A stretch of 64,000 bases of DNA from Candidatus Nomurabacteria bacterium RIFOXYD2_FULL_35_12 (GCA_001786365.1 MFWK01000022.1:15087-79086), one strand, 5' to 3'; positions 40,530 through 61,511 are shown, counted from the stretch's first letter. Numbers and translations are program-made. The notes: a model not told the origin generated them from the letters alone.

Positions 40530-40649
40530 AAAGCCTTGCGCAGGAGCTTAGAAAATAAATGAGGTAATCCGAATATTATTTTCTTGAGCGACGAGCAGTT
40601 CGCTGGCGAAGCTTCGCCAGATAGATTGCTTTTCGAGAGAAGCTATTTA
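40530..40649. repeat. Family F ~120-bp repeat, copy F1 (candidate structured RNA or MITE)
   Basis: AAAGCCTTGCGCAGGAGCTTAGAAAATAAA...TATTATTTTCTTGAGCGACGAGCAGTTCGCTGGCGAAGCTTCGCCAGATAGATTGCTTTT. About 90% identical to 48327..48445 and to the reverse complement of 61409..61511. Confidence 0.8.
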
Positions 40650-40662
40650 GTTTTTCAAAGAA

Positions 40663-41676
40663 CTACTTTTTGCTTAAAACTGTTTTTTTATACACGTCCA
40701 AATGATCGAGAGCTATACCTGTGCCTTTTACTACACAGAAAAGAGGATCCTCAGCCAAAGCAGCCTTTACTCCAGTCTTTCTATAAACCAAATCAGTGAA
40801 ATTTCGAAGTTGAGAAGAACCTCCAGTCATGATTATTCCTTGATCAATAATATCTGAGGCTAATTCTGGCGGAGTTTCTTGCAATACATCTTTGATAGCT
40901 TGAATTATTTGTTTTAGTTCTCCATCTATCGCTTTGACTATTTCATTTGTTCCCACTCGCGCTGACCTAGGCAAGCCTTGAATAAAATCCCTACCTTTTA
41001 TCGTCACACTGAGCTCTTCTTCTAAAAGCACCGCTGCACCGATTTTAATTTTTACTTCTTCGGCTGTCCTATCACCGATAGCTAAGTTAAAAGTTTTTTT
41101 AATATAATCAGCTATAGCGCCATCTATTTTATTTCCAGCGCACTTTACTGATTTAGAGGCCACAATTCCGCCAAGCGAAATGACTGCTACGTCTGTCGTG
41201 CCCCCACCTATGTCCACAACCATATGCCCTTTCGATTCATAAATTGGAATTCCCGCGCCGATGGCTGCTAAGATAGGCTCTTTGACTACATAAGCATTCT
41301 TTGCACCAGCGCGAATTGCAGCTTCTATGACTGCTCGCCTCTCTGTACTCGTGACTCCTGCAGGAACCGAAACCATCACATCCGGTTTGAAAAAATTAAA
41401 TTTCCCCATCGCTTTATTTATAAAATAACGAAGCATTGCCTCAGTCACACGATAATCTGCTATGACTCCATCTTTCATCGGGCAATAAGTAATGATAGAT
41501 TCTGGGGTCTTTCCAATCATATCTTTGGCTTCAAAACCAATAGCTAGAATTTTATTGTCTTGTTCAGAAACCGCTACAACAGAAGGCTCGTTTAGAATAA
41601 TTCCTTTTCCAGGTAAAAAGACCAAAGTATTGGCTGTTCCTAAATCTATGCCTAGTTTTTTCGTAAAAATACCCAT
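40663..41676 (-). CDS. mreB: Rod shape-determining protein MreB
   Basis: 337 aa. GIDLGTANTLV, DIGGGTTD actin-fold motifs. Confidence 0.9.
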   Translation of the reverse strand: MGIFTKKLGIDLGTANTLVFLPGKGIILNEPSVVAVSEQDNKILAIGFEAKDMIGKTPESIITYCPMKDGVIADYRVTEAMLRYFINKAMGKFNFFKPDVMVSVPAGVTSTERRAVIEAAIRAGAKNAYVVKEPILAAIGAGIPIYESKGHMVVDIGGGTTDVAVISLGGIVASKSVKCAGNKIDGAIADYIKKTFNLAIGDRTAEEVKIKIGAAVLLEEELSVTIKGRDFIQGLPRSARVGTNEIVKAIDGELKQIIQAIKDVLQETPPELASDIIDQGIIMTGGSSQLRNFTDLVYRKTGVKAALAEDPLFCVVKGTGIALDHLDVYKKTVLSKK

Positions 41677-41794
41677 CCCGTTTAGAAGCAGGTCGCGGTC
41701 AACAAACCTCGACTTTGCTTAGTTATGTTATTAAATTTTTTATCTTTTATAAACATGATTCTTATATAAAACTGCGACCGTGGCTTCTAACGGG
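41677..41794. repeat. Family A MITE-like element, copy A3
   Basis: CCCGTTTAGAAGCAGGTCGCGGTC...GCGACCGTGGCTTCTAACGGG. The left end directly abuts the mreB start codon (41676). Confidence 0.75.
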
Positions 41795-41836
41795 ACCCAT
41801 GAGCCTATGTTATCATATTTATGTTAAAATCAAAGA

Positions 41837-42172
41837 ATGGATGACGAAGAAAAAAATGATATAGAAAACAATCTCAAAAACCCATTTATAGGATATTTGG
41901 CAAATTTAAAGAAACATAAACAAGCCATAAACCCTGTTCATGAAATTGTAAATTGCTATTATAAAATGAATGGCTGGGAAAAAATGCCAAAAGATTTTTA
42001 TACCGGTAGATATGCTTATAATAAGCTCGCGAAAGAAGCAAAAATGCTCTACCAAGCTTGTAATGAAGTTTTAGATGATGCTATTTGGGCTTTAGACAAA
42101 ATGAAATACCTCGCCGAGAAAGGCAAATTCGACTGGTCTATAATCACCTGTTTGAAACACAAATTAAAATAG
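41837..42172 (+). CDS. Hypothetical protein
   Basis: 111 aa ORF, no recognisable motif. Confidence 0.3.
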   Translation: MDDEEKNDIENNLKNPFIGYLANLKKHKQAINPVHEIVNCYYKMNGWEKMPKDFYTGRYAYNKLAKEAKMLYQACNEVLDDAIWALDKMKYLAEKGKFDWSIITCLKHKLK

Positions 42173-42173
42173 T

Positions 42174-42878
42174 TTAAGAAACAATTACTGTAAATTCCCC
42201 TCTTTGCTTGTCAGGATTTTTATTGAAATATTCTAAAATTTCGTGTGGTAAACCAGTTTTAAATTCTTCATAGATTTTTGTCAATTCGCGAGCTACGCAG
42301 ACTTTTTTATGAGGGCAAAATTCAACAAGCGATGCTAATGTTTTTAAAATTCTGTGAGGAGATTCATAAAATACCATCGTGCGTTCAGAAATTGCTATTT
42401 CTTTAAATAAAGTTTCTCTGCCTTTCTTGTGCGGAAGAAAACCAAGAAAAGTAAATTCATGAATAGGCATTCCTGATGCAGAAAGCGCGGCAATAACGGC
42501 TGAAGCTCCAGGGATTGGAATCACTTGAACTTCTTCATTGGTAAATTTTTCTTTTATTCTAGAAACGAGCATTGAGCCCGGGTCTGATATTGTGGGAGTG
42601 CCAGCATCAGAAACCAATGCAACATTTTTCCCGTCGTATAATAATTTAAAAATTTTATCTAATTTCTCATTCTTTCCGAGTTTATAATCAGCTCCAGCTA
42701 CATCGTCAGACGGATAGCTCATCGTTTCTTTATTTATTTCATATTTATTTAAAATTTTCTTTGTCTCTCGCGTATCTTCACACAATATCAAATCCACGCT
42801 TTTAAGCGTCTCGATAGCTCGGAGTGTGATGTCTCCCATATTTCCTATCGGCGTCGCCACAACATAAAATTTAGACAT
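42174..42878 (-). CDS. rsmI: 16S rRNA (cytidine1402-2'-O)-methyltransferase
   Basis: 234 aa. FYVVATPIGNMGDITLRAIETLKSVDLILCEDTR tetrapyrrole-methylase fold of RsmI. Confidence 0.85.
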   Translation of the reverse strand: MSKFYVVATPIGNMGDITLRAIETLKSVDLILCEDTRETKKILNKYEINKETMSYPSDDVAGADYKLGKNEKLDKIFKLLYDGKNVALVSDAGTPTISDPGSMLVSRIKEKFTNEEVQVIPIPGASAVIAALSASGMPIHEFTFLGFLPHKKGRETLFKEIAISERTMVFYESPHRILKTLASLVEFCPHKKVCVARELTKIYEEFKTGLPHEILEYFNKNPDKQRGEFTVIVS

Positions 42879-42883
42879 AAATT

Positions 42884-43330
42884 TTATTTCCTATACTTTC
42901 TAGTTCTCCACTTGTCTGCAATCTTAACACGAGTGAGTGAACGTTCGAGTTCAGCTTCAAAATGCTCAAAGTCCACATGGTCTTTGTTTTCCATTTGTTT
43001 TTCCAATTCAATAGCACGAGCTTTTGCTTTTTCTATTTTTTCATCTGAAATTTCAGACACATGTTCGGCAAAGTCCGCCAAAATAGCGACTTCGGTAATT
43101 TTATTTTCACCTTGTTTTATTTCCATAAACCCTCCAGCAACTGCCATCGGAACATGTTCACCATTTACGACAGCCACAATATCTCCAGATGCAAGACCTG
43201 CAATGAGTGGAATATGTTCCGGCAAAATGGTTATCTCACCTTCCGTAGTAGGCAAAGTGACTTGATCTACCATTTCTTCCAGAACTAGTCTTTCTGGGGT
43301 GATTATTTTAAGTTTTAATTGTTTTGACAT
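42884..43330 (-). CDS. atpC: F1 ATP synthase epsilon subunit
   Basis: 148 aa. LKLKIITPERLVLEEMVDQVTLPTTEGEITILPEH... beta-sandwich plus C-terminal helices. Confidence 0.8.
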   Translation of the reverse strand: MSKQLKLKIITPERLVLEEMVDQVTLPTTEGEITILPEHIPLIAGLASGDIVAVVNGEHVPMAVAGGFMEIKQGENKITEVAILADFAEHVSEISDEKIEKAKARAIELEKQMENKDHVDFEHFEAELERSLTRVKIADKWRTRKYRK

Positions 43331-43455
43331 AAATTTTTGACTTTAAAATTTTTAAATAGTGCTTTTAAAAATCGTACGGAGGCCGACGGGCCGAAGTCTT
43401 AGCAAAAATTTAGTAAAATTTTATGCGGGTTTTTAAAAGTACCTATTTAAAAATT

Positions 43456-44856
<1,401 letters not shown>

Positions 44857-45861
44857 TTAACTTACACTTGCCATACCCGCACTGATTTCTGATATTTCCC
44901 TAGTAATGTTTCCCTGCCTTGCTTTATTGAACACCAGGGTCAGATCATCTATCATTTCTCCTGAAGCATCAGAAGCATTTTTCATTGCGACCATTCGACT
45001 CGACTGTTCAGAAGCATTTGATTCGAGCAACATTTGATAAATCTGCATCCTTGTAATCTTCTCCGCGAGTGACCCTATCAATGTGTTCATGTCTCCTTCT
45101 ATTAAATAACTTATACTTTTTTCTCTCCCGACGCTTTCGGTCGGGACTCCGACCTCTCCAGGCGTCGGAGCTAAATTGTTTATTAAATCTTGTAATTCTG
45201 TTTTAGATACAGGCAATATTTGTTTTATATTTGGCTTCTGATTTAAAGCGGAAATAAAATCAGTATAAGCTACTAAAACTTTATCGTAATGAAGAAGGAT
45301 ATATTCATCTATGGTAAATTTTGAAATTGGAACAACTTCTGTCAAAGAAATATTATTGCTCAAATCTGCAAAAGTGGCAACGACATTTACTCCGAGTCTG
45401 CGCATCGCCACATCTCCTTTTTTACCGACAGAAACAATATCTACCCCGTTAGAAGCAGGTCGCCCCGAGGTGACCGTAGCACTCTCGTGCTCGAGAGAGC
45501 GGCTTCTAACGGGGTCTAAATTTATGTTTTGACTTTTTAAAAATGAAATCGTTTTTTTAATAACTTGCGCATTATAAGATCCACACAAACCCCTGTTTGA
45601 TGTAATGAGCACAAGCAACACATTTGCTTTTACCCCACCTTTCTTTTCTCTTTCAGTAAAAAGTGGATGGGAATTCTCCTCTATATTTTTAGCTATTGAT
45701 GTAAGAACTTCCCACGAATATCCAGCATAAAGACGTGACGCCAAAGTAGAAGCCACCGCACGCTTCATCTTACTAGCAGCCACGAGCTCCATCGCTTTCG
45801 TGATTTTCTTTGTGTTCTTTACAGACTTTATGCGTCGTTTTATTTCTTTAGTTCCCGCCAT
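44857..45861 (-). CDS. atpG: F1 ATP synthase gamma subunit (with two in-frame repeat-element insertions)
   Basis: Conserved N-terminus MAGTKEIKRRIKSVKNTKKITKAMELVAASKMKRA at 45861 (the ORF track's upstream extension to 45954 is unlikely). Inserts encode LDPVRSRSLEHESATVTSGRPASNG (family A) and APTPGEVGVPTESVG (family B). Confidence 0.85.
   Translation of the reverse strand: MAGTKEIKRRIKSVKNTKKITKAMELVAASKMKRAVASTLASRLYAGYSWEVLTSIAKNIEENSHPLFTEREKKGGVKANVLLVLITSNRGLCGSYNAQVIKKTISFLKSQNINLDPVRSRSLEHESATVTSGRPASNGVDIVSVGKKGDVAMRRLGVNVVATFADLSNNISLTEVVPISKFTIDEYILLHYDKVLVAYTDFISALNQKPNIKQILPVSKTELQDLINNLAPTPGEVGVPTESVGREKSISYLIEGDMNTLIGSLAEKITRMQIYQMLLESNASEQSSRMVAMKNASDASGEMIDDLTLVFNKARQGNITREISEISAGMASVS
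45127..45168. repeat. Family B element, copy B2 (in-frame inside atpG)
   Basis: CCCGACGCTTTCGGTCGGGACTCCGACCTCTCCAGGCGTCGG. Same architecture and reading frame (A-P-T...VG..TE.VG) as B1 and B4. Confidence 0.75.
45444..45514. repeat. Family A element, copy A4 (in-frame inside atpG)
   Basis: CCCCGTTAGAAGCAGGTCGCCCCGAGGTGACCGTAGCACTCTCGTGCTCGAGAGAGCGGCTTCTAACGGGG. Termini match A1/A3, and the interior holds nested palindromes. Confidence 0.7.
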
Positions 45862-45922
45862 TTGATATTTCTTTTGCCTGTCCCGTACGAAGCTTTGCTT
45901 TCGTTCGGGATACCGGCCATAA

Positions 45923-47425
45923 TTATTTACTAAAACCCATCTTAAAATCACCAATTACTTTTTTTAATTCTACTTCGCCTTTATCTGTCCACATTTTGGA
46001 CTCTTTGATTTCTTTGTAGAAAGTTTTTGCATGACGCTCACTGTATTCTATAAGTCCTTGCTCAAATTCTTTTATTTTATCAATAGAAACATCATCCATA
46101 AGCCCTTTTGTGAGAGCATAAAGTGTAACAATTTGATTTTCAATTTTCATCGGAGAATATTGAAGTTGTTTCAAAACTTCCACAGCTCTTTTACCCCTTT
46201 CAAGTTGTTTCTTTGTAGATTCATCAAGGTCGGAACCGAATTGAGCAAATGCTTCAAGTTCGCGGAATTGCGCAAGGTCAAGCTTTAATGTTCCAGCCAC
46301 TTTTTTCATTCCTTTTATTTGCGCGCTAGAACCGACACGAGAAACAGAAAGACCGACGTTTACAGCCGGACGGATACCTTTATAGAAAAGATCTGTTTCC
46401 AAAAAGATTTGTCCATCGGTAATAGAAATAACGTTTGTCGGAATATAAGCAGACACGTCGCCAGCTTGCGTCTCCACTATCGGAAGCGCAGTGATAGAAC
46501 CACCGCCATATTTTGCATTTCTTCGGCAAGCGCGTTCTAGTAAACGAGAGTGTAAATAGAAAACATCTCCTGGATACGCTTCACGTCCTGGTGGTCGGCG
46601 GAGAAGAAGAGAAATTTCACGATATGCCACAGCATGTTTAGAAAGATCATCATAAATAATTAAAACATCTTTTCCTTGATCCATAAAATATTCCGCAATA
46701 GAAACTCCGGCATAAGGAGCAATATATGACATTGAAGCAGCTTCTGATGCTCCAGCTGAAACTATAACTGTATAATCCATAGCACCACCGGCTTCCAACC
46801 TTGCTCCTAATTTTCGAAGCTTGGAATCCTTTTGACCAATAGAAACATAAACGCAAATCATATTTTGACCCTTTTGATTTAAAATTGCATCGATAGCGAT
46901 AGCTGTCTTTCCTGTTTGTCTATCACCAATGATGAGCTCACGTTGACCACGGCCGATTGGAATAATGGCATCGATAACTTTGATACCGGTAGCAACCGCT
47001 TGGTCCACACTTTGTCTAGTGACAACTCCTGGAGCCACCTTTTCAATTGGATATGTTTTTGAGGCTTTGATTGCTCCTTTTCCATCAATCGGCGCACCAA
47101 TAGCATTTACCACTCTGCCTAAAATACTGTCTCCTACTGGTATTTCCAAAATTTTTCCGGTTGCTTTTACTTCATCTCCTTCTTTAATTTTTGAAAAGTC
47201 TCCTAGAATAATTACTCCGACTGCATCTTCTTCCAAATTGAGCGCCACACCGACTTCACCATTTGGAAAAGTCACCATTTCGGATGATTTGATATCGGAA
47301 AGTCCAGAAACCTTCGCAATACCATCAAAAACCTCTATTACTTGACCTACCTTTTCAACTTTTAATTGAAGTGAAAAATTATCTATCTCCTTTTTTAAAT
47401 TTTCTACTATTGTGTTGCTGTTCAT
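45923..47425 (-). CDS. atpA: F1 ATP synthase alpha subunit
   Basis: 500 aa. Walker A GDRQTGKT. Confidence 0.95.
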
Positions 47426-47829
47426 ACTTTTATTAAATATTCTTGTAATTTTTCAATTTTATTTTTAATCGATAGGTCAATAACTTCATCATTCACTTCT
47501 ATTTTTAATCCACCTAATAATTTTTTATCTATATATTCCTTGAGAACAACTTCTTTTACTAAATAACGTTTCTTTAAAGTTTGTTCTAGATGTGTTTTAA
47601 CCTGATGACTGAGTGCTTCCACACTTGATATCTTCACTTCTAATCTCCCATCTGCATTGTTTATTATTTTTTTTAATCTAGAAAGTATATCAGGAGCTTT
47701 AGAAAGTAAACGTCTACGAAATAAAAATTTAACAACTTTTTCAGATATATTTTTTTGCTCAGAACTACTCTTATCTTTAAACATAAGGTAGATTGCGCGA
47801 GCTATGTCATTGTTTGATGTTGTTGTCAT
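47422..47829 (-). CDS. atpH: F1 ATP synthase delta subunit (OSCP)
   Basis: 135 aa, position between atpF and atpA, helical N-domain. Short for delta, hence moderate confidence. Confidence 0.65.
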
Positions 47830-48290
47830 TATAAATTATTCAAGTCTTTTTTACTCCCAAGTATCTTTTCTGTAGCTTTCATCGCAATATCAACAATTTC
47901 TTTTCTTGCTGATTCGACTATGGCTTTTTTATCAATCTCCATTTGTATAATTCTTTTCTTATTCCATTCATCATTGTCTTTCTTTATCCTCTCGAGATTT
48001 TCTATTTTTAATTTTTCCAAGTCTTTTTGAAGTTCTTTTTGAGCATCTGCAGAAATTTTTCTAAGTTTAATTGTATTTTCCTTATATTCTTCGCCAGCTT
48101 TCTCTAATAATCCGTTGGCTTTTTTTGAATCAATTAAACCTTTCTTTATCTTTTCTGTACGCTCGGCCATCAACTTGCCTAGTGGCTTTAAAGCAAACAT
48201 ATACAAAACAACAAAGACAATAATAAAATTTATCGCTTGAGCGATGATAATTTTCCAGTCTATGTGAAATGTAGAAATAATTGAATCCAT
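47829..48290 (-). CDS. atpF: Fo ATP synthase subunit b
   Basis: 153 aa. Single N-terminal TM helix then a long charged coiled coil. Confidence 0.75.
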   Translation of the reverse strand: MDSIISTFHIDWKIIIAQAINFIIVFVVLYMFALKPLGKLMAERTEKIKKGLIDSKKANGLLEKAGEEYKENTIKLRKISADAQKELQKDLEKLKIENLERIKKDNDEWNKKRIIQMEIDKKAIVESARKEIVDIAMKATEKILGSKKDLNNL

Positions 48291-48326
48291 TGTTTTTATT
48301 TAAAAAAATTAAAATAGTTCTTTTTA

Positions 48327-48445
48327 AAAGCCTTGCGCAGGAGCTTAGAAAATAAAAATGGTATTCCATTTATTATTTTCTTGAGCGACGAGCAGTTCGC
48401 TGGCAAAGCTTTGCCAGATAGATTGCTTTTTAAAAGAAGCTATTT
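48327..48445. repeat. Family F ~120-bp repeat, copy F2 (between atpE and atpF)
   Basis: Same sequence as F1. Its central palindrome reads CTGGCAAAGCTTTGCCAG here. Confidence 0.8.
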
Positions 48446-48457
48446 TAAATTTTCAAA

Positions 48458-48735
<278 letters not shown>

Positions 48736-48771
48736 TTAATAATAATAATTTCGACTAATAATTTATAATAA

Positions 48772-49662: not shown

Positions 49663-49664
49663 TT

Positions 49665-49931
49665 TTATTTCTTGTCTTTTTTATCTTCTATTTCTAAAGT
49701 TTTCATATATTTAAATACTACTCGCACTATGCCATATGAAGAGATTATGAATCCTAAACCAGTGCATCCTAAAAATATCCAAGGGTCTGTGCCGTAATGA
49801 CTGTCTAATGCTTTACCTATTATGAGCGCCAAAACTATAGGCACTACAACCCAAGTCGAAACCCTGCTGAATACATCAAAAGCAGGCTTCCAATCTATTT
49901 TTTTATTACTTTCATTAGTCACAAAAAACAA
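49665..49931 (-). CDS. Small membrane protein at the head of the atp operon (AtpI/AtpZ-like)
   Basis: 88 aa, two TM helices, immediately upstream of atpB. Confidence 0.4.
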   Translation of the reverse strand: MFFVTNESNKKIDWKPAFDVFSRVSTWVVVPIVLALIIGKALDSHYGTDPWIFLGCTGLGFIISSYGIVRVVFKYMKTLEIEDKKDKK

Positions 49932-49984
49932 AGCCCTTACGGCTTTACCCTAGTATAAGATAAAAATATATTGGATGCAAATGT

Positions 49985-50137: not shown

Positions 50138-50145
50138 TAAAATTT

Positions 50146-50766: not shown

Positions 50767-50890
50767 AAAAACTGTTTAAAAAACTATAACAGAAAATATT
50801 GAGTAAAGCAAAATTCCCCTCACCCCTTGCTTTCCCCTCTCCATTTTAAAAATAAATGGAGAGGGGTTGGGGAGAGGAAAGAGATTAAAC

Positions 50891-50915
50891 AAAAAACCAC
50901 CCAAGGTGGTTTTTT
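50891..50915. terminator. Rho-independent terminator AAAAAACCACCCAAGGTGGTTTTTT (bidirectional)
   Basis: Perfect GC stem with A- and T-tracts, 3' of the RRM-protein gene. Confidence 0.7.
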
Positions 50916-50940
50916 GTTTAATCTGAAATCTAAATTTAAA

Positions 50941-51261: not shown

Positions 51262-51393
51262 TTTCTTTACTTCTCCCGTTTTTAAAAATCGGGCAAAAAC
51301 TACTTAATAAAACGTAGAAACTCTTTTCGCTAAGTGAGAAACTACGATGAAAAGCATAACATATTTAAAATGAAAAGTAAATAAAGAGAATCT

Positions 51394-52359: not shown

Positions 52360-52438
52360 ATAATTATATTATACAAAAATAAATCGTTGAGTCGTAACTC
52401 TTTGCAGGGGTTTCGAGGCTGACGAGCCGAGAATTTCA

Positions 52439-52463
52439 GGATTTTTTAAGCTTCAAAAAATCC
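52439..52463. terminator. Hairpin GGATTTTTTAAGCTTCAAAAAATCC (9-bp stem) between rpmE and prfA
   Basis: Perfect inverted repeat GGATTTTTT/AAAAAATCC. Confidence 0.5.
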
Positions 52464-52494
52464 GTACCGAAAAAGAGTTATGACGAGAAAGATT

Positions 52495-52719
52495 TTATTT
52501 CTTTGCTTTAGCAGTTACGGTTGCAGCACGTCGCTTGTTGAATCTCTCTACGCGTCCAGCAGTGTCCATAATTTTTTCATTACCAGTATAAAAAGGATGG
52601 CAATTACTGCAGATTTCCATAGCAATTTCAGGCATTGTGGAACCAACTTCAAAAACCGCCCCGCAAGCGCAAGTGGCTTTTGTCTTTATATCGTATTTTG
52701 GATGTATCTCTTTTTTCAT
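52495..52719 (-). CDS. rpmE: 50S ribosomal protein L31
   Basis: 74 aa. MKKEIHPKY...CxCG...CSNCHPFYTG signature. Confidence 0.85.
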   Translation of the reverse strand: MKKEIHPKYDIKTKATCACGAVFEVGSTMPEIAMEICSNCHPFYTGNEKIMDTAGRVERFNKRRAATVTAKAKK

Positions 52720-52748
52720 TGCTCAAAAAGATTATCACGAATTCTATT

Positions 52749-54158: not shown

Positions 54159-54190
54159 AGCTTTTATTATACCATAATTTTATAAAATTT

Positions 54191-54916
54191 TTACTTCTTT
54201 TCTGCCTTCTTTTCCCCGCCTGCAACGCTATGCGCAGCATTGCGGGCAGGTTCTTTAGCTGGTGTGGTGGTGGCTGGTTCTGCTCCAGGCACTCCTTCTT
54301 CTTCTTTCTTGCCTTTCTTCTCTACTTCAATAGCGGACAAATCAGGAGCAACTACGACTTCTTCTTTTTCTTCAACTTGAGCAACGACAGAAGCTACGAC
54401 ATCGCCTGTATTTGTGATGACGACGACTCCGGATGGCAATTTTATATCAGAAACGAAAACGTTATTATCCAAGGTTTCAAGTTTTGAAATATCTACAACT
54501 AAATTGTGCGGTAAATCTGCAGGCAAAGCTTCGATTTCTATTTCATGAAGAACTTTCACAAGATTTCCAATACCACTCTTTACCGCATTTGAAATACCTT
54601 CGAATACAAGAGGAACCTTGACTCGAATTTTCTTTTTCATATCAATAACCAAAAAATCCACATGGATTGGCTCATCGGTGACTGGGTCTACTTGCACTTC
54701 ATGAATAAGAGCATTCACATCGCCAGCAGGAGTAGAAATCTTGATAGCAGAAGACTCTCCGGCATCTCGCCAGATTTTCTTGAATTCAACGATAGAAAGT
54801 GTTACAGATGTGGTCTTTTCCCCTGCTCCGTAAAAAACAGCTGGGATTTTCCCAGACTTTCTCAAAACACCCAATTTTGTATCTAAATCTCTTTTATCAG
54901 CTTTAATTACAAACAT
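54191..54916 (-). CDS. rplY: 50S ribosomal protein L25 / general stress protein Ctc (with C-terminal repeat-containing tail)
   Basis: Conserved start MFVIKADKRDLDTKLGVLRKSGKIPAVFYG at 54916 (the ORF track's 54976 start is probably too far upstream). The C-terminal tail ...EPARNAAHSVAGGEKKAEKK is encoded by the family C element. Confidence 0.75.
   Translation of the reverse strand: MFVIKADKRDLDTKLGVLRKSGKIPAVFYGAGEKTTSVTLSIVEFKKIWRDAGESSAIKISTPAGDVNALIHEVQVDPVTDEPIHVDFLVIDMKKKIRVKVPLVFEGISNAVKSGIGNLVKVLHEIEIEALPADLPHNLVVDISKLETLDNNVFVSDIKLPSGVVVITNTGDVVASVVAQVEEKEEVVVAPDLSAIEVEKKGKKEEEGVPGAEPATTTPAKEPARNAAHSVAGGEKKAEKK
54214..54250. repeat. Family C element, copy C2 (in-frame at 3' end of rplY)
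   Basis: CCCCGCCTGCAACGCTATGCGCAGCATTGCGGGCAGG: 35 of 37 positions identical to C1, same frame (PARNA.HSVAGGE). Confidence 0.7.
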
Positions 54917-55045
54917 ATAACTTAATACAATATTATCTCCTCGACTCGGAAATGGAAAAAGAAAGATATTTTCCATTTCCCTCGCCTTACGTCGCTAATA
55001 AAGATAGTATATATAAAAATACTAAAAAAGCAAATATAAATTCAA

Positions 55046-56044
55046 CTATTTATATTTCCCAATAGATGCCAGGCTATTATTTTGAGCAGATTGCAAGAGA
55101 AGCTCTTGCGCACCTGATACATCATTTGGATTCTTTGCCCAAGATTTAAAAGCAGGATTTTGAATCGCTCGGCCATAAGAAAATGAAAGTGGCCAAGGAA
55201 GAAAATTATTCTTATGCATTGCATTCAAATTCATTGTCGCCTCGAGATCGAACTGCCCACCGGAGAGAAAAACAATTCCACCGATATCCTCCGGCACATG
55301 TTCCTTTAAACATCTCAAAGTTATTTCGGCTACTTTTTCCGGAGAAGATTTTTCTTTTGATTCTTTTCCAGAAATAACCATGCTGGTTTTCAAAATCATC
55401 CCCGGTAAGAAAACATTCGCATCTTTAAGCTTGGCAAAAACCATTTCCAGATTGCGAGCAGTCACTTGATAGCATTTTTCTAAAGTATGATTTCCATCTA
55501 TTAAAATTTCTGGTTCAACGATTGGTACAATGTCATTTTCTTGGCACAATATCGCATATTTTGCGAAAATTTCCGCATTTACTTTCATACAATCAAAGCT
55601 AGGAATATGCACACCTATAGTATAAACTGCGCGCCATTTTGCAAAAGTCGCGCCGAGTTTCTTATACTCTTTTAACCTCTCACTTAAACCTTCTAAGCCT
55701 TTAGTTATTTTTTCTCCATCATGATTCGAAAAATCTGTAGTGCCAGCATCAACTTTTATTCCAATTTCTATTCCTTTTGAATTTAAAATTGAAACAAAAC
55801 TTTTCCCATCAACGGTTTTTTGTTTTATTGTTTCATCAAAAAGGATATAACCGGAAATATACTTTTCTATCTTTGGCGCGGTAATAAGAAGTTCACGATA
55901 CTCTCTGCGTTTTTCCTCTGTATTTGGGACACCAAGCTTTAGAAAACGTCCAGCACTCGTATTTAAACTCTCATCAATGGCAAGTATCCCTTTTGGTATC
56001 TTCATCAAACGAGCAACTGTTTTGGTGAGAATTTTTTTATTCAT
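55046..56044 (-). CDS. fba: Fructose-bisphosphate aldolase, class I
   Basis: 332 aa. GILAIDESLNTSAGRFLKLGV...EKRREYRELL matches class I (Schiff-base) FBA. Confidence 0.8.
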   Translation of the reverse strand: MNKKILTKTVARLMKIPKGILAIDESLNTSAGRFLKLGVPNTEEKRREYRELLITAPKIEKYISGYILFDETIKQKTVDGKSFVSILNSKGIEIGIKVDAGTTDFSNHDGEKITKGLEGLSERLKEYKKLGATFAKWRAVYTIGVHIPSFDCMKVNAEIFAKYAILCQENDIVPIVEPEILIDGNHTLEKCYQVTARNLEMVFAKLKDANVFLPGMILKTSMVISGKESKEKSSPEKVAEITLRCLKEHVPEDIGGIVFLSGGQFDLEATMNLNAMHKNNFLPWPLSFSYGRAIQNPAFKSWAKNPNDVSGAQELLLQSAQNNSLASIGKYK

Positions 56045-56126
56045 CCCGTTAGAAATAGGAAATGCTTTGCATTTCCATTGTTATATTACTTTTAATAAAA
56101 ATTTTAACCATATGATTTCTAACGGG
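56045..56126. repeat. Family A MITE-like element, copy A5
   Basis: TIRs CCCGTTAGAAAT / ATTTCTAACGGG, with an internal palindrome GGAAATGCTTTGCATTTCC. The left end abuts the fba start codon (56044). Confidence 0.75.
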
Positions 56127-56135
56127 ATTCATTAA

Positions 56136-57650
56136 TTATTTAAGTAAATCTATTAAGACCTGTTTTGTCACAGCCGGATTTGCAGAACCTTTTGTTTCTT
56201 TCATTATCTGACCGACGAGAGACATGAGTGCCTGTTCTTTACCACCCTTGTAGTCAGCAACAACTTTCGGACTAGCGTCAATAATCTTTTTTGCAATTTC
56301 TTTCAACGCTCCAGTATCGCTACTCTGAAGAAGGTTTTTCTCTGTCGCGATTTTCATCGGTGATTCATCTTTGCTATTAGTTTTTTTTGCAATCATCGCT
56401 AAAATATCTTTTGCCACGCGAGAAGAAATTTTATTTTCTGAAACAAGATTTATTAATTCTGCAAAATTTCCAACAGACGGCAGTTTTACCTCGCTTTTTG
56501 CTCTGAGTCCTATAAAATCTGTCGTAACATAATTAGACGCTATCTTTATTTGATCCTTATTTTTCAAAATTTTAGCCACTTCTTCAAACCAAGCTCCCAA
56601 ACTAGGCTCATTTATATAGCTTTCTATGTCTTCATCTTTTATTCCAAAATCTTTCTTGTATCTTGCACGTTTTGCCTGTGGAAGTTCTGGTAATTCTTTT
56701 TCAATTTTTTCTAAGTCAAATGCTTCGTGTAATTTCATCTTTGGCAAATCGGGTTCTGGAAAATATCTATAGTCTGCGCTTCCCTCTTTTTTTCTCTGAG
56801 AAAAAGTTTTTTGTTTACCATCATCCCAACCTCGAGTTTCCTGCACTATTTCTGAGCCTTTGCCTTCTTCTACTAATTTTATCATCCGATCGACTTCGTA
56901 TTTTATAGCTCGTTCAACGCTTCGGAAAGAATTTAAATTCTTTACTTCTACTTTTGTGCCTAATTTTTTTAGATCCGTAGAAACAGAAATGTTTGCTTCC
57001 ACGCGCATTTCACCTTTCTCCATATTCGCTTCGGAAACTCCAAGATACCAAAGTATAAGCTGGAGTTCTTTGGCAAATTTTGTCGAGCCTTTTGCCGCTT
57101 CTTCATCACTTTGAAAAGTTGTCGCTTCTGTCACAAGCTCCATCAAAGGTATACCTGCTCTGTTAAAGTCTACTAAACTATATCCGCCACGGTCACCTGC
57201 CCCGTACCGAGCTTGCTCTGGTTCGGGGTGCTTGTTGTTTGCTGTGTCTTCTTCCAAATGCACGCGAGTTATGTCAAAATCTGCCAAATGTCCACCAGAA
57301 ACTATTGGAAATTTATATTGAGAAATCTGATAACCTTTTGGAATATCCGGATAAAAATAATTCTTACGATCAAATTCCGTAAAGTCCGCAATTTTTCCAT
57401 CTACCGCCAAGCCGACTTTTATAACATTTTCTATCGCTTTTTTATTTATAACTGGCAAAGCTCCCGGATGCGCCATGCAAACTGGGCAGACATTTACGTT
57501 TGGCTTTTCTTCATCTGGGTCATTCTTGCAACCACAAAACATTTTTGTATTTGTCGAAAGTTCCGCATGTATTTCTAAACCAATTGTCGGGTAATACTTT
57601 TTTTCCATTATTAAAATAATAGCATATTTATAAAATATAATGAATTCCAC
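56136..57650 (-). CDS. gatB: Asp-tRNA(Asn)/Glu-tRNA(Gln) amidotransferase subunit B
   Basis: 504 aa. YYPTIGLEIHAELSTNTKMFCGC... C-terminal YqeY-like domain. Confidence 0.9.
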   Translation of the reverse strand: MEFIIFYKYAIILIMEKKYYPTIGLEIHAELSTNTKMFCGCKNDPDEEKPNVNVCPVCMAHPGALPVINKKAIENVIKVGLAVDGKIADFTEFDRKNYFYPDIPKGYQISQYKFPIVSGGHLADFDITRVHLEEDTANNKHPEPEQARYGAGDRGGYSLVDFNRAGIPLMELVTEATTFQSDEEAAKGSTKFAKELQLILWYLGVSEANMEKGEMRVEANISVSTDLKKLGTKVEVKNLNSFRSVERAIKYEVDRMIKLVEEGKGSEIVQETRGWDDGKQKTFSQRKKEGSADYRYFPEPDLPKMKLHEAFDLEKIEKELPELPQAKRARYKKDFGIKDEDIESYINEPSLGAWFEEVAKILKNKDQIKIASNYVTTDFIGLRAKSEVKLPSVGNFAELINLVSENKISSRVAKDILAMIAKKTNSKDESPMKIATEKNLLQSSDTGALKEIAKKIIDASPKVVADYKGGKEQALMSLVGQIMKETKGSANPAVTKQVLIDLLK

Positions 57651-57670
57651 AAATATAGATTGTTAATTTA

Positions 57671-57710
57671 TCTACCATCTAGAACATATGTAAAAGTTAG
57701 TAGAAATAAT
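57671..57710. promoter_or_regulatory. Promoter-like ~30-bp motif (TTTACA-N17-ATAAAT on minus strand), copy 1, upstream of gatB
   Basis: TAGAACATATGTAAAAGTTAGTAGAAATAAT is repeated directly (2 mismatches) at 58315..58353. On the minus strand it reads TTTCTACTAACTTTTACATATGTTCTA and lies ~35-60 nt 5' of the gatB ATG. Confidence 0.4.
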
Positions 57711-57715
57711 ATAAC

Positions 57716-58285
57716 TTAACTTTTTGATTTCAAAGTTCCATTTTTTGTAACTTCCAAGATTTCCACATAATCTAAAATGCCTAGCTTGCTTAAATCAGTA
57801 ATAAATCTTTCAGGTAGCTCTACCTTGCCCACCCAAACACTCTTGTGAACTAAATTAAAATCAAGCATTTGCAACATACCTCTTAAAATATTTCTCTCTC
57901 TATTGAAAGAAACTGGGATATCATAACTAATTACCACAACCTTATTTCCTAATTTTGATTTATATAAATCCTTATTTAAGGAAAAAGAATTTTGAAAATT
58001 ATTTAATTTATGTTTTCCTTTTTCGCTCAAATAAATTTGATTTAAGTCATTTTTAAAAATCAACCCTTCACTTTTTAATTTGGACAAATATTTTTTTAAC
58101 TTATCCATTTTCTGTTTGTCTAATTGTAAATTTATTCTTTTGTTTTGTATTTTTGAAAACTCGTATCTTATTTTATTACTCGTTGCGCCATATCCTGCTT
58201 GTAAAAAAGAATTTGCAAAATCAACATAATCAATCACTTCATCACCCAATAAATTAAAAATTTTATAAATAATTTCTCCTTTCAT
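57716..58285 (-). CDS. Hypothetical protein (flanked by the 30-bp direct repeats)
   Basis: 189 aa, no recognisable motif. Confidence 0.3.
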   Translation of the reverse strand: MKGEIIYKIFNLLGDEVIDYVDFANSFLQAGYGATSNKIRYEFSKIQNKRINLQLDKQKMDKLKKYLSKLKSEGLIFKNDLNQIYLSEKGKHKLNNFQNSFSLNKDLYKSKLGNKVVVISYDIPVSFNRERNILRGMLQMLDFNLVHKSVWVGKVELPERFITDLSKLGILDYVEILEVTKNGTLKSKS

Positions 58286-58314
58286 GCCATATATTATACA
58301 TCATAATTAATATT

Positions 58315-58353
58315 CTACTAATTTAGACATATGTAAAAGATAGTAGAAAATAT
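58315..58353. promoter_or_regulatory. Promoter-like ~30-bp motif, copy 2, upstream of the 57716..58285 gene
   Basis: TAGACATATGTAAAAGATAGTAGAAAATAT, a direct repeat of 57671..57710. Confidence 0.4.
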
Positions 58354-58394
58354 TTAATTTATTTTTTAAAAAATTTAATTACATAAAAAGAAAA

Positions 58395-58422
58395 TCGCCC
58401 CGGCTGGAGTGTCGGGGCGACA
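58395..58422 (-). terminator. Rho-independent terminator (TCGCCCCG-loop-CGGGGCGA + T-tract on minus strand), preceded by a second hairpin CTCGC-GCAGG-GCGAG
   Basis: Inverted repeat TCGCCCCGGCTGGAGTGTCGGGGCGA. The minus-strand reading is followed by TTTTCTTTTT. Lies 3' of the 58455..58802 gene. Confidence 0.6.
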
Positions 58423-58454
58423 ATCTCCTCGCGCAGGGCGAGATACAACATGAT

Positions 58455-58802
58455 TCATGACTGAACATACAGAGCTCCTTTCTCAAGGAGACCAGGAAGC
58501 TCTTTTTTACAGCAGTAGCATCTGAAAGATGAGCCAGCTCGAATAGTGTTGAGATTTCCACATTCCGAACAAGCTTCGCACTCCTCCAGGAAAAGGATTG
58601 GGTATGTTTGCCAAGCGTTCAAGAACACCCCAACAAGTGCACGGTCTATGATGAAATAAAGTGACGCTTCAGGTATGAAGCCTTCCCTGTCCACTTCCTT
58701 CATCATTCGATCCCAAGCTACCTTGATACTTTCCTGCGCTAATCCCCACTCTCGCAAAAAGTATAACAGACTCATTGCGTGATATGACATAGGATACGAC
58801 AT
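58455..58802 (-). CDS. Hypothetical protein with C-terminal CxxC...CxxC motif, encoded in a GC-rich island
   Basis: 115 aa. ...EECEACSECGNLNTIRAGSSFRCYCCKKE... Local GC ~45-50%, own terminator. ORF 58379..58561 overlaps and is probably spurious. Confidence 0.35.
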   Translation of the reverse strand: MSYPMSYHAMSLLYFLREWGLAQESIKVAWDRMMKEVDREGFIPEASLYFIIDRALVGVFLNAWQTYPILFLEECEACSECGNLNTIRAGSSFRCYCCKKELPGLLEKGALYVQS

Positions 58803-58904
58803 AAAGTTTGCTCCTTCCGTATTTTGATTTAACTTGTGAACACCTAAACTAAAAAAGATTATATCACAAATATAAGAGGTTGTCTATAAAAATATGGGGA
58901 AAAT

Positions 58905-59915
58905 TTACGCTTTCTTTAGAATCTTTACTAACGAGTCACTGAATTTTTTTACCATTTTGTCATCAAACAGAGAAAGAATAAAAACGTTCTTGCTGATTTT
59001 TTTGAAATCTGCTACTTTTTTAGCGATAATTTTAGCATCATTAACAAAATCAGATTTAGTTAAAATAATTATTTCTTCTTTTACAGACAAACCTTCATTA
59101 CCCAAGCCCAAAGTCTTGTCGTATTTTTCCAATTCTTTCCGTATTTCTTTATAACTTTTCATCATACCAGTAGAACCTTTAGAAAGATTTTCAAAAGAAA
59201 TGAGGTGCGCAATCATTTTCGTTCGTTTAATATGACGCAAGAATTTCACACCGAGGCCCTTGCCTTCTGAAGCCCCTTCAATGAGCCCAGGAATGTCCGC
59301 AATGATGTAACCATGAAAATCCCCCAAGTTTGGATCGAGCGTAGTAAAAGGATAATCTCCAACTTTTGCATCTGCATTTGTCAGTGCATTTAATAAAGAA
59401 GATTTACCCGCATTTGGAAGTCCAATAAAACCAATATCAGCAAAAAGCTCCAGCTCTATTTTAAAATCTCCTTTTTCACCAGGCCCACCGACATTTGATT
59501 CTTGTGGAGTCGTATTTACGGAACTTTTAAAATGTTCATTTCCAAAACCACCGAAACCACCCCTCAAGAGAAGAATCTTTTCTCCTTCTTTCATTAATTG
59601 CCATTTTTCATCAGTTGCAAGATTTGTAATAATAGAGCCAACAGGTAATTCTAAAATAAAATCTTGCCCATTTGCTCCATGCAAGCTCTTGCTTCCGCCG
59701 TCTTCCCCTCTGCCAGCAATAAAACTTTTCTTGGCTTTATATTTTAAAAGTATGTGCACGTCGCGGACAGCTTGCACATAAAAATTCCCGCCTCGTCCGG
59801 CATCTCCTCCGGCCGGGCCACCTTTTGGCTCAAATTTCTGCCTGTGCCACCTGACAACACCGTTTCCACCGGCTCCAGCTTCTGCATATATTTTAATTTC
59901 ATCAATGAATGCCAT
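58905..59915 (-). CDS. obg: GTPase Obg/CgtA
   Basis: 336 aa. Obg fold MAFIDEIKIYAEAGAGGNGVVRWHRQKF...; G1 GLPNAGKSS; G3 DIPG. Confidence 0.9.
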   Translation of the reverse strand: MAFIDEIKIYAEAGAGGNGVVRWHRQKFEPKGGPAGGDAGRGGNFYVQAVRDVHILLKYKAKKSFIAGRGEDGGSKSLHGANGQDFILELPVGSIITNLATDEKWQLMKEGEKILLLRGGFGGFGNEHFKSSVNTTPQESNVGGPGEKGDFKIELELFADIGFIGLPNAGKSSLLNALTNADAKVGDYPFTTLDPNLGDFHGYIIADIPGLIEGASEGKGLGVKFLRHIKRTKMIAHLISFENLSKGSTGMMKSYKEIRKELEKYDKTLGLGNEGLSVKEEIIILTKSDFVNDAKIIAKKVADFKKISKNVFILSLFDDKMVKKFSDSLVKILKKA

Positions 59916-59948
59916 ATGAAAAGTATAAAAATGAAAAATTAAGGAGCC

Positions 59949-59980
59949 GTGGGTTCCCTGTCCTTATGACCTCGAGGGCG
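59949..59980. repeat. Family D 32-nt repeat, copy D2 (reverse orientation)
   Basis: GTGGGTTCCCTGTCCTTATGACCTCGAGGGCG is the exact reverse complement of 17281..17312. Confidence 0.7.
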
Positions 59981-60016
59981 AAGGTGGGAGAATTTTTTAT
60001 TTTTACATTTTTCATA

Positions 60017-60916
60017 TTAACCTAATAATGCCAATTCTGCTAATTTAATTGCCCCTTCTTTTGATTTTGCGACTGCAAGAAAAAGCGCCCGATGACAGAA
60101 TACCGCATCCTTTACTCCTGTTATTTTTTGCAAATCTTCATATGAATATCCACCCCAAGAAACAGGAAAGTCCTTCCTATTTCCAAAACTACTTTTGCTT
60201 TTCCTCATAGATACAACAGACCAATCATCTTTATCACCATAAACTACAAAAAGGGGTTCTTCAAAGTCTTGCAACGCATCCCAAATCTCAAATCTAGAAA
60301 CCTTTGGCTTGTCTATAACGATAAGCCTCTTGTCTTCCGACTTTTTATAATAACCTTTAATAATTTTTGTGATTTCTATTTGATCACTTGCTCTTTTAAT
60401 TTCTCTCTTTAAAATTTCTTTCGCCCACACCAACACTTTCAAAAACTGCTTGTCTTTCTCTACATCCTCTAATGCAGTCGGAGAAAAAATAGAAAAAACA
60501 TCCTGTAAAGTATATGGGAAAATATTCGAAAAATTACTCTTATACAAATCGATTCCGTTATCATTTGCATCCACCGGCATCACTAGTTTACGTTCAATCA
60601 CATCTGCGACTTCTTTACTACCGGAGATTTCTTTGCCAAATTTTTTCCAAATAAGACCAAAAGACGAATAAGGTATACCCTCCCTTTCACCTGCTCCGCC
60701 CTTCTGATGATGATCAAATCTATTTAGATCTTCACTATATATTCTTCCCACATCAAAGACATAATCTCCACTTTTTTTAATCTCAATATCTCTCGTGCGA
60801 ATTATTTTAAAATTCTCACCTCGATTCTCAAGCATGATTAAAAGCGTCGCAGCCGCAAAAATATCATCGGGGTGAAACGAACCATCATGTGTTACTAATT
60901 TTGTCAGTTTTTTCAT
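60017..60916 (-). CDS. MYG1/UPF0160-family metal-dependent hydrolase
   Basis: 299 aa. THDGSFHPDDIFAAATL N-terminal motif typical of MYG1. Confidence 0.65.
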   Translation of the reverse strand: MKKLTKLVTHDGSFHPDDIFAAATLLIMLENRGENFKIIRTRDIEIKKSGDYVFDVGRIYSEDLNRFDHHQKGGAGEREGIPYSSFGLIWKKFGKEISGSKEVADVIERKLVMPVDANDNGIDLYKSNFSNIFPYTLQDVFSIFSPTALEDVEKDKQFLKVLVWAKEILKREIKRASDQIEITKIIKGYYKKSEDKRLIVIDKPKVSRFEIWDALQDFEEPLFVVYGDKDDWSVVSMRKSKSSFGNRKDFPVSWGGYSYEDLQKITGVKDAVFCHRALFLAVAKSKEGAIKLAELALLG

Positions 60917-60930
60917 CCAAGTGCAAAAAT

Positions 60931-61380
60931 TTAAAATAATGAATCTACGACTTCTTTGACCAAAGTGCCATCCGCTTTACCTTTTAATTCTTTCATAACA
61001 GCAGACATCAACATACCCTTTTTTGTGGCATCAGTAATTGCAAGCTCGGCCTTTTTTGCTTTGGCGACCTTTTCAATATCTCCTTTGCTCATCATTTTCG
61101 GAAGATAAGTTTCTAGAATGGAAAGTTCTGCTTGTTCTTCTTTTACCAAGTCTTCTCTATTTCCTTTTTTGAACTGTTCAATAGAATCCTTGCGTTGCTT
61201 GGCGAGCCTATTTATCACAGCTAAAGCTTCTTCATCTTTGAGCATTTCTTGAGGCTTTTTATTTTTTGCTACAAGCTCATTTGTAAAAGCTGCAGACATA
61301 GCCCGAAATGCTTTCAGCTTTAATGCATCGTGTGCCATCATCGCTTCTTTTATTCCATTTTTTATTTGTTCGTGTAACAT
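60931..61380 (-). CDS. GatB/YqeY-domain protein
   Basis: 149 aa. MLHEQIKNGIKEAMMAHDALKLKAFRAMSAAFTNELV... is YqeY-like. Confidence 0.7.
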   Translation of the reverse strand: MLHEQIKNGIKEAMMAHDALKLKAFRAMSAAFTNELVAKNKKPQEMLKDEEALAVINRLAKQRKDSIEQFKKGNREDLVKEEQAELSILETYLPKMMSKGDIEKVAKAKKAELAITDATKKGMLMSAVMKELKGKADGTLVKEVVDSLF

Positions 61381-61408
61381 AAATTTATATAGGAATATCT
61401 ATTTTTAT

Positions 61409-61511
61409 AAAGCAATCTATCTGGGCAAGCTTGCCCAGCGAACTGCTCGTCGCTCAAGAAAATAATAAATAGAATACTATTTTTATTTTCTAAGCTCCTG
61501 CGCAAGGCTTT
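61409..61511. repeat. Family F ~120-bp repeat, copy F3 (reverse orientation, between divergent genes)
   Basis: Reverse complement matches F1/F2. The central palindrome here is CTGGGCAAGCTTGCCCAG. Confidence 0.8.

Follow-up and report, generated by a model that had tools for sequence, protein, structure and literature searches.

The subject of this study is a family of palindromic repeats, family F, found in a 64,000-nucleotide stretch of the genome of Candidatus Nomurabacteria bacterium RIFOXYD2_FULL_35_12 (GCA_001786365.1, MFWK01000022.1:15087-79086), referred to throughout as the window. The window has a G+C content of ~35% and carries housekeeping genes, among them those for MreB, HolB, the F-type ATP synthase operon, YqeY, GatB, Obg and a release factor; proteins identical to its own are encoded on metagenome scaffolds, and close homologues come from organisms named Candidatus Paceibacterota, Nomurabacteria or Parcubacteria. 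An original prediction, made from the sequence of the window alone, described three intergenic copies of a ~120-bp repeat, ~90% identical to one another, and read them as a functional RNA or a miniature inverted-repeat transposable element (MITE). Using exact 23-mer and 30-mer probes from the core, we located the three copies where they had been placed, at 40530-40649 (+), 48327-48445 (+) and 61409-61511 (-); the probes matched nowhere else in the window and gave no match in 100 dinucleotide-preserving shuffles. All three copies indeed lie between genes (mreB-holB, atpE-atpF and yqeY-exonuclease), and their ~104-nt core is ~91-94% identical, as counted from the alignment; over 139 nt, arms included, the pairwise identities are 86%, 85% and 75.5%. 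The length, on the other hand, had been underestimated: the terminal AAAGC/GCTTT complementarity is present, and in the alignment of the three copies the pairing runs 20-35 bp further outward, such that the full elements measure ~140-156 nt, with a 20-35 bp outer stem around a ~105-nt core.

Within this outer stem each copy holds two hairpins, designated P2 and P4, the latter being the central palindrome. The full element of copy 1 spans 40504-40659 (+; inverted repeat I19, arms 40504-40520 and 40643-40659; RNA fold ~-50 kcal/mol, z = -5.0) and is antisense to both of its neighbours, lying after the mreB stop and before the holB start. Its P2, in the long form (GCUUAGAAAAUAA...UUAUUUUCUUGAGC), occupies 40546-40589, i.e., columns 34-77 of alignment A4, where pairs 34-77 and 35-76 and the tip pairs covary, and its P4 (CTGGCGAAGCTTCGCCAG) occupies 40603-40620, i.e., columns 91-108, where 99% of cells are paired and both sides have changed in 5 of 7 pairs. 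Copy 2 (48309-48448, +; inverted repeat I2, with weaker arm pairing out to 48297-48460) separates atpE, for the c subunit, from atpF, for the b subunit, and runs antisense to the atp operon, with P2 at 48343-48386 (the same columns of A4) and P4 (CTGGCAAAGCTTTGCCAG) at 48400-48417. Copy 3 (61382-61537, -; inverted repeat I7, with outward arm pairing) occupies the spacer of a divergent gene pair, yqeY (start codon at 61380) and an ExoX-like exonuclease gene, and shares its strand with yqeY; its P2 lies at 61452-61495 (again columns 34-77) and its P4 (CTGGGCAAGCTTGCCCAG) at 61421-61438, read from 61438 to 61421 on the minus strand. The P4 hairpins of copies 2 and 3 were assigned by probe match, by the tally of P4 sequences and by covariation in A4. 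As had been claimed, the palindrome is different in each copy and perfect every time. Moreover, six core positions distinguish copy 2 from copy 3, and these make up three base pairs, each changed in a compensatory way; the tip of P2 reads AAATGG/CCATTT in copy 2 versus AAATAG/CTATTT in copy 3. Folded as RNA, the forward strands of the copies reach -48 to -51 kcal/mol (z = -5 to -6), compared with -38 to -43 kcal/mol for the reverse strands.

Family F extends well beyond this genome. A core 21-mer matched 48 stretches of species-representative genomes, comprising 41 true copies, from Paceibacterota, Nomurabacteria, Minisyncoccia and some metagenome-assembled genomes labelled Saccharibacteria, and 7 chance matches in GC-rich genes, whereas a gapped pattern taken from the 3' half recovered at least 120 metagenome loci. 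The full collection, drawn from genomes and metagenomes of Patescibacteria, numbers ~170 copies, which are of either a long or a short form (loci are cited below by L numbers). All comparative sequences derive from metagenome assemblies, where repeats can produce chimeras; taxon labels are those of the record titles, and genes in the comparative loci are simple open reading frame (ORF) calls. Family F is thus a real, multicopy and widespread repeat. No description of such elements in Patescibacteria was found in the searchable literature, and the family has apparently not been described so far.

The shared fold is a long outer stem, P1, closed onto a three-way junction that consists of a P1b-P2 arm, the P4 hairpin and invariant joining strands, giving the whole unit a Y shape. 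P1 is 20-35 bp long and A/U-rich, ends in AAAGC/GCUUU, and usually contains one G.A mismatch and a bulged G on its 3' arm. It is followed, from 5' to 3', by one unpaired C, P1b (UUGC/GCAG) with an internal loop GCA/GA, P2, the strand UUCG, P4 and the strand AUAGAUU. P4 has 7 bp and a 4-nt loop, AGCU or AGCA. The two forms of the family differ solely in P2, which in the long form is a 19-bp AU-rich hairpin and in the short form has 4 bp and a GACG or GGCG loop; the window copies are of the long form. Their P2 (GAAAATAA...TTATTTTC, with a covarying tip) is a third covarying hairpin that had not been recognised before. In its place a hairpin AGCGA/TCGCT had been proposed, whose segments exist; its pairing is contradicted by the competing P2 base pairs, which covary, and its pair G76-C91 is broken in 33 of 85 sequences. 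Likewise, the supposed palindrome is better described as hairpin P4 than as a double-stranded palindromic site, because its loop is often the non-palindromic AGCA.

The compensatory changes on which the original prediction rested are real and hold up in the far larger copy set, where P1, P2 and P4 all covary. In the short-form alignment (n = 45), 96.0% of cells are paired versus 81.0% in shuffles, 19 pairs have changed on both sides, and pairing falls to 28-50% when the partners are slid by 1-3 columns; in the long-form alignment (n = 85), 92.8% of cells are paired versus 80.2% in shuffles, and 32 pairs have changed on both sides. In neither test did any of 500 shuffles reach the observed pairing. 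P4 alone occurs in 58 distinct sequences, and its five variable pairs comprise 260 Watson-Crick, 9 G-U, 7 A-C and 14 other combinations. Palindrome-breaking substitutions at a similar frequency, which would have spoken against selection on the structure, were not seen in the larger set, P4 being almost always perfectly paired. Within P2, pair 35-76 of the long-form alignment covaries (CG 50, AU 24, UA 9). P1b is invariant in both alignments, partly since the retrieval pattern fixed its 3' strand, and its covariation support comes only from in-gene copies, those inside the dus gene described below, in which a UUUC/GAAG variant replaces UUGC/GCAG in a compensatory manner. Stem changes are all compensatory, and the joining strands are invariant.

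The fold belongs to one strand in particular. Of 136 copies, 135 fold more stably on the forward strand when computed as RNA, and 127 when DNA parameters are applied. The forward strand also carries G-U pairs more often than A-C mismatches (99 versus 12, or 27 versus 12 without two fixed G-U pairs), and the arms show the same tendency (145 versus 80). This bias stays on the forward strand of the element regardless of transcription of the host genes (41 versus 12 in host-antisense copies, 21 versus 15 in sense copies); selection on the host transcript was ruled out since the bias does not reverse in antisense copies. The arms, for their part, are complementary over a median of 24 bp in cognate pairs, compared with 1 bp in non-cognate pairs. 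Taken together, a single-strand fold is preserved by compensation, with one strand as the better folder.

We also compared the core with known RNA motifs. Hammerhead ribozymes are recognised by conserved CUGANGA and GAAA strands around a three-way junction. The hammerhead-like string of family F, CUGACGAG, spans the covarying P2 stem and its loop rather than a catalytic core, and its U covaries with A (UA 19, CG 9, GC 8); no GAAA strand was found in the core, nor any Rfam hammerhead match. K-turn and T-loop readings of the core were rejected by inspection against the covariation tables.

Turning to genomic behaviour, the 162 non-redundant copies show no fixed relation to their neighbours: in co-directional gene pairs 27 are antisense and 20 sense, while 27 lie in divergent and 23 in convergent spacers, and the element usually fills the whole spacer from stop codon to start codon. 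Many copies recur at orthologous sites, which include atpD-atpC, yqeY-exonuclease, ftsK, a trmH-like gene, fpg and murD. Both orientations are found at the atpD-atpC (9:6), exonuclease-yqeY (7:5) and ftsK (6:5) sites; at other recurrent sites orientation is one-sided. The yqeY site is occupied in 12 further loci, one of which duplicates another, with 9 elements forward and 4 reverse when the window is included. A TGnTATAAT motif precedes the element at this site (in the window at 61543-61535 on the minus strand, adjoining the 5' arm of copy 3), and would read it forwards in 9 loci and backwards in 4. Exactly at the spacer of copy 3 (window ~61500-62000), gene orientation switches from minus to plus and the GC skew changes sign; with only 2.5 kb of the window to the right of the switch, this could be a replication origin or terminus, or merely a divergent gene pair.

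Filled and empty versions of the same site were found among close relatives. At mreB-holB the window has an antisense copy and L017 a sense copy whose outer arms are different, whereas in L028, L012 and L058 the spacer measures 0-50 nt and has no element, and in L014 a lone arm is left. At atpE-atpF, family F is present in the window and, as an orthologous copy, in L024, and L033 has an empty site. Compared over its arms as well, copy 1 matches the atpD-atpC copy of L021 at 95.7% identity, as against 86% for copy 2 and 75.5% for copy 3. Copies are hence gained, lost and inverted, both at intergenic sites and, as described below, at tolerated loops of proteins. Concerted evolution within the genome was ruled out, as copies are closer to orthologous or source copies elsewhere than to each other, and so was insertion into pre-existing host hairpins, as the unoccupied mreB-holB and empty atpE-atpF sites have none. 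We further observed three different hairpin elements, GC-rich double hairpins among them, in the atpE-atpF spacer of other genomes (L032 ~6300-6430, L038 ~7745-7790 and L039 ~1015-1115); this spacer has evidently been hit repeatedly.

Two of the collected loci depart from the simple pattern: the second copy of L024 and the copy of L106 appear recombinant or split. In L106 (2669-3164) a family F copy is split at the P2 tip by ~390 nt resembling the 5' coding part of the neighbouring FtsK-like gene, which could be a real rearrangement or an assembly chimera. In addition, contigs end inside or right beside family F copies in L003, L019, L027, L043, L049, L071 and L171, indicating that the repeat fragments metagenome assemblies of the Candidate Phyla Radiation (CPR).

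Copies also occur inside protein-coding genes, most clearly in dus. Close Dus orthologues are 73-88% identical and differ almost solely in the linker after GNPWFF, which in some has 5-7 residues. In L183 and L184 the dus gene contains a short-form family F copy (covariance-model scores of 88 and 91 bits), whose predicted translation is SKSNLSSAAAPANFSARQPAKGFS. The peptide SLRSEHISKSNLSSAAAPANFSARQPAKGFS, slightly varied in P0015, is found in the Dus proteins P0007, P0015 and P0047, two of whose genes are those matched by the covariance model, and corresponds to the reverse-strand translation of the short form. Nucleotide alignment of the two matched dus genes against an orthologue without it gives a clean 93-nt difference. 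Judging from these reading frames, copies can be translated. The dus pair had suggested that the arms are copied from the host flank at insertion; this is disfavoured, as a more distant orthologue also carries the element, and for the same reason the "empty" allele more probably records a deletion that left one arm behind. Different hairpin-element insertions or short scars are found in the linker after GNPWFF from one orthologue to another, making it a hot spot. A second Dus indel hot spot lies near the N-terminus in P0011, P0028 and P0047 (PALPDG..SRGR / AASTRGDSSTRGG, alignment A5), and may be another element-derived peptide.

The window itself holds two such in-frame insertions from related or similarly designed elements. 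Its dus ORF (16158-17240, - strand), over which the Pfam Dus domain spans the whole protein, contains element I11 in frame, and at I11 the predicted Dus has ~28 residues more than close orthologues. Element I8 (45436-45522) lies in frame in atpG (44857-45954, - strand), with arms CCCCGTTAGAAGC/GCTTCTAACGGGG and two inner hairpins; it would add 25 residues, DPVRSRSLEHESATVTSGRPASNGV, to the ATP synthase gamma subunit, which are absent from the 76%-identical L024 orthologue. I8 shares arm sequences with another element, I13, and the two have the same stem-plus-two-hairpins design as family F.

We built a covariance model, R1, on the short form and scanned the window with it, obtaining matches to the three family F copies and to three relatives: X, Z and I11. 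Element X lies in the atpD-atpC spacer (43341-43461, +; match 43352-43452, E = 2e-7), where relatives carry family F itself. Its arms are homologous to those of family F and it shares the P2 module (GGCCGACGGGCC), while its second hairpin is different and AU-rich; it resembles F2-type copies in L070, L098 and L078. Element Z (52374-52505, +; match 52388-52489, E = 1e-8), between a release-factor gene and an SLT-domain gene, has the P2 module GGCUGACGAGCC, a second hairpin with an AAGCUUC loop, and locus-specific arms; its siblings in L003, L052, L059 and L102 have near-identical cores and unrelated arms. I11 (16386-16485, +; match 16387-16486, E = 9e-7) carries the P2 module GCGCGACGGCGC. X, Z and I11 have in common long arms, a P2 module followed by GA, and a second hairpin, and differ in their joining strands. 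The best reading of these sequence likenesses is that family F is one branch of a superfamily with a shared P2 module. In all, the window contains at least 10 long-stem hairpin elements of several core families, amounting to ~2% of its 64 kb.

We searched the copies for the hallmarks of RNA genes. At gathering thresholds, Rfam 15 reported only 4 tRNAs in the window; it gave nothing relevant at E <= 10 for copy 2, nor at E <= 1 for a short-form copy. No consistent signals of an own sigma-70-type promoter or intrinsic terminator accompany the copies. Family F thus has none of the attributes of an independent RNA gene: besides lacking a promoter and terminator of its own, it is found in mixed contexts, in both orientations behind one promoter, and inside an ORF. 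Of the two readings originally offered, the dedicated non-coding RNA is therefore disfavoured by random orientation and the missing promoter, terminator and Rfam match, while that of a mobile repeat gains support from presence and absence at the same sites and from the in-frame dus copies. The MITE label fits in that the element is small, non-coding and multicopy, with filled and empty sites; it does not fit the variable terminal arms, the lack of a target-site duplication and the failure to find a parent transposase. Other classes of repeat were considered as well. An integron attC site, which would have R and L boxes and belong to cassette arrays beside an integrase, was ruled out, as copies are single and dispersed among housekeeping genes and their conserved part is central, not terminal; diversity-generating retroelements (DGRs) and tandem interspaced guide RNA (TIGR) arrays were dismissed because the copies stand alone at scattered sites and do not differ specifically at adenines.

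Taken together, we consider it probable, though by no means certain, that family F is a selfish, non-autonomous palindromic insertion element of Patescibacteria (Paceibacteria, 'Nomurabacteria'-like), comparable to the Rickettsia palindromic elements (RPEs) and akin to MITE-type repeats such as Correia and ERIC, and that its single-strand fold is under selection. Such an element would propagate via a single-stranded intermediate, DNA or RNA, in the Y fold, recognised by a factor acting in trans. The P2 hairpin with its flanking GA would be the likeliest recognition site, because it is the most widely shared module. The fold would be selected in those copies that seed new ones, which would keep the family uniform, and the long inverted arms may ease in-place inversion and hairpin-mediated deletion. 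Read-through transcription from the host would yield a long double-stranded RNA stem, a plausible substrate of RNase III, and its cutting may make insertions between cistrons tolerable, even useful.

Several observations weigh against this interpretation. Roughly nine orthologous sites account for about 100 of the 167 copies, and the core of the yqeY-site copies keeps 89% identity between species, compared with 83% for positions 1 and 2 and 49% (saturated) for position 3 of the yqeY codons; a core more conserved than yqeY looks like site-by-site selection and not like decaying junk. The distal arms of orthologous copies can be completely different in sequence yet complementary, which simple transposition leaves unexplained. 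Terminal inverted repeats conserved among copies were not found, the arms differing from copy to copy, and the longest direct repeat across the ends averages 4.0 nt versus 3.9 nt in non-cognate controls, giving no sign of a target-site duplication; the single direct repeats TTTTCT (dus) and TAAAAAATA (L017) are within the AT-rich background. No transposase, reverse transcriptase or recombinase recurs beside the copies, whose neighbours are housekeeping genes, nor is the gene of a RAYT, the single-copy Y1 HUH transposase that mobilises REPINs, among these neighbours, the 64-kb window being the part of this genome covered. In 2.9 million viral contigs the family F pattern had no match, and carriage by phages was rejected, the 11 matches of the P2 pattern in these contigs being chance hits in GC-rich coding DNA; no vector for spread between lineages is consequently known. 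Finally, copies are phylogenetically related, so their counts overstate independent events, and the retrieval patterns each forced some core columns to be invariant.

The conservation of the core at recurrent sites and the locus-specific complementary arms keep explanations at the level of host function or of DNA alive. One is that the P1 stem, in either orientation, is used by the host, between cistrons and in 5' leaders, for processing by RNase III, for stabilisation or for insulation, with host need maintaining the copies at conserved sites. Copies do occupy entire stop-to-start spacers, the same sites recur across species, and the atpD-atpC spacer holds family F in all sampled relatives (these loci having been retrieved through family F) and element X in the window; the core is conserved above the neighbouring gene, the stem forms in both orientations, and RNase III is known to cut Correia elements (PMC10969869). 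We nevertheless judge this explanation clearly unlikely, since a plain stem would require neither invariant joining strands nor a conserved P2 module, the G-U bias stays on the forward strand of the element in antisense copies, where the opposite is predicted, close relatives have the same sites empty, and some copies lie inside ORFs. The core could alternatively be a stand-alone structured RNA, a trans-acting small RNA or a new ribozyme, released as a forward-strand transcript from the outer stem: covarying stems with invariant junction nucleotides are typical of functional RNA, the forward strand is energetically favoured and bears the G-U pairs, the fold z-score is -5 to -6, and TGnTATAAT stands directly upstream of the yqeY-site copies. 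Yet that same promoter would transcribe the element forwards in 9 loci and backwards in 4, copies are oriented randomly to their neighbours with no space for a promoter of their own, and the promoter and terminator scans returned no consistent signal; presence varies between close relatives, copies appear to be translated inside dus, Rfam yields no match even at permissive thresholds, and the hammerhead-like CUGACGAG is a covarying stem plus loop. A free-standing RNA is thus very doubtful.

We regard as similarly improbable a site acting at the DNA level, namely a folded strand or cruciform, resembling a fork-like three-way junction, to which a host protein would bind in replication, recombination or the organisation of the chromosome. 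Apparent orientation-independence alongside a strand-specific fold would suit such a site, as would the conserved positions and the better folding of the forward strand with DNA parameters in 127 of 136 copies. However, the element is dispensable in close relatives, its orientation varies at the same site and so has no polarity with replication, several core families occupy the same sites, the in-frame gene copies look accidental and not placed, and no candidate protein is known. A bolder reading, possible but unlikely, is that the superfamily is a structure-driven replicator and not a transposase-driven MITE: the Y hairpin would be copied to new sites, inverted and kept perfectly self-complementary by template switching during replication or by a structure-specific CPR enzyme that reads P2, and some conserved copies, in the atp operon and the yqeY leader, would have been domesticated as double-stranded RNA processing sites.

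Several known repeats invite comparison with an RPE-like insertion element. RPEs are palindromic, occur in spacers and in frame within ORFs, and have no associated transposase (PMC10969869, PMC1166351). Family F behaves similarly, as a 100-150 bp palindromic element found both in spacers and in frame in ORFs, and the two share a reduced-genome host, division into several families, and in-frame insertion at tolerated protein positions. RPEs, however, belong to an unrelated host phylum, such that a sequence relationship is not expected and membership is not claimed; moreover, family F has a conserved asymmetric three-way-junction core and variable, often locus-specific arms, and its copies are mostly intergenic, many of them at conserved orthologous sites. 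Correia elements invert in place, and their double-stranded RNA stem is cut by RNase III (PMC10969869). These Neisseria repeats (CREE/NEMIS) resemble family F in their ~100-150 bp length, inverted ends, location in transcribed intergenic regions, in-place inversion and double-stranded RNA stem. Their terminal inverted repeats, 26 bp in length, are conserved, and they duplicate a TA target. Family F, in contrast, has variable arms and no detectable duplication, and its cutting by RNase III is a prediction.

ERIC/IRU sequences are imperfect ~127 bp palindromes that occur in either orientation in transcribed spacers, with indel size variants and occasional intragenic copies (PMC10969869). Both orientations are likewise seen in family F, and the size variants are comparable to its long and short P2, whereas ERIC belongs to another host clade, the enterobacteria, and forms a simple hairpin without a conserved three-way junction. 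We know of no covariation evidence for ERIC comparable to that for family F. REP/REPIN repeats, together with RAYT, are hairpin-forming, extragenic and vertically persistent, and are thought to move as folded single strands (PMC3116915, PMC3337134). As with family F, they constitute an intragenomic population of hairpin-forming repeats in the extragenic space of compact genomes; in REPINs the stem (REP) is conserved and the loop varies, while in family F the core is conserved and the stem is variable. The inverted terminal repeats of parvoviruses form T-shaped hairpins with a long stem and two small hairpins, occur in flip and flop orientations, and have GAGC repeats by the junction. Their likeness to family F, i.e., the long stem capped by two small hairpins, the two orientations and GAGC repeats next to the junction, is a structural analogy only: the joining strands of family F are long, conserved and unpaired, its copies are dispersed over the chromosome, and no evolutionary or mechanistic link is evident.

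CPR/Patescibacteria genomes are regarded as streamlined and repeat-poor. If the insertion-element interpretation is true, family F would provide "protein-coding palindromes" outside Rickettsia as a second, independent case, once more in a bacterium that is ultra-small and depends on a host, and this repeated occurrence would suggest that genome reduction is generally linked to this type of selfish DNA. Its unusually rich covariation (58 P4 variants and a modular P2) would make it a good model for a single-stranded shape recognised by a mobilising machinery. On the practical side, the repeats break CPR metagenome assemblies and lengthen annotated proteins.

Other hairpins and inverted repeats were noted in the window. 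I3 and I4 (17247-17346, -, and 59914-60017, +) form a separate repeat family with the conserved core GTGGGTTCCCTGTCCTTATGACCTCGAGGGCG, also present in L011 (~6586) and L041 (~6245); copies of this type have long arms that are complementary within a copy and unrelated between copies, and the I4 element has no Rfam match (E <= 1). An intergenic hairpin element at 56036-56135, between the fructose-bisphosphate aldolase gene and gatB, has arms ATCCCGTTAGAAAT / ATTTCTAACGGGAT that are similar to the arms of the atpG insertion. Three tRNA genes of the window have weak inverted repeats on their flanks (12298-12417, 25407-25578 and 31858-31991). Processing stems of the kind found around stable RNAs were ruled out here, since the flanks of 44 tRNAs in related loci pair no better than controls, and these repeats are probably AT-rich background. 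Lastly, a perfect 20-bp palindrome at 50882-50924 (AGATTAAACAAAAAACCACC / GGTGGTTTTTTGTTTAATCT) looks like a conventional bidirectional intrinsic terminator, suggesting that ordinary terminators coexist with the long-armed elements.

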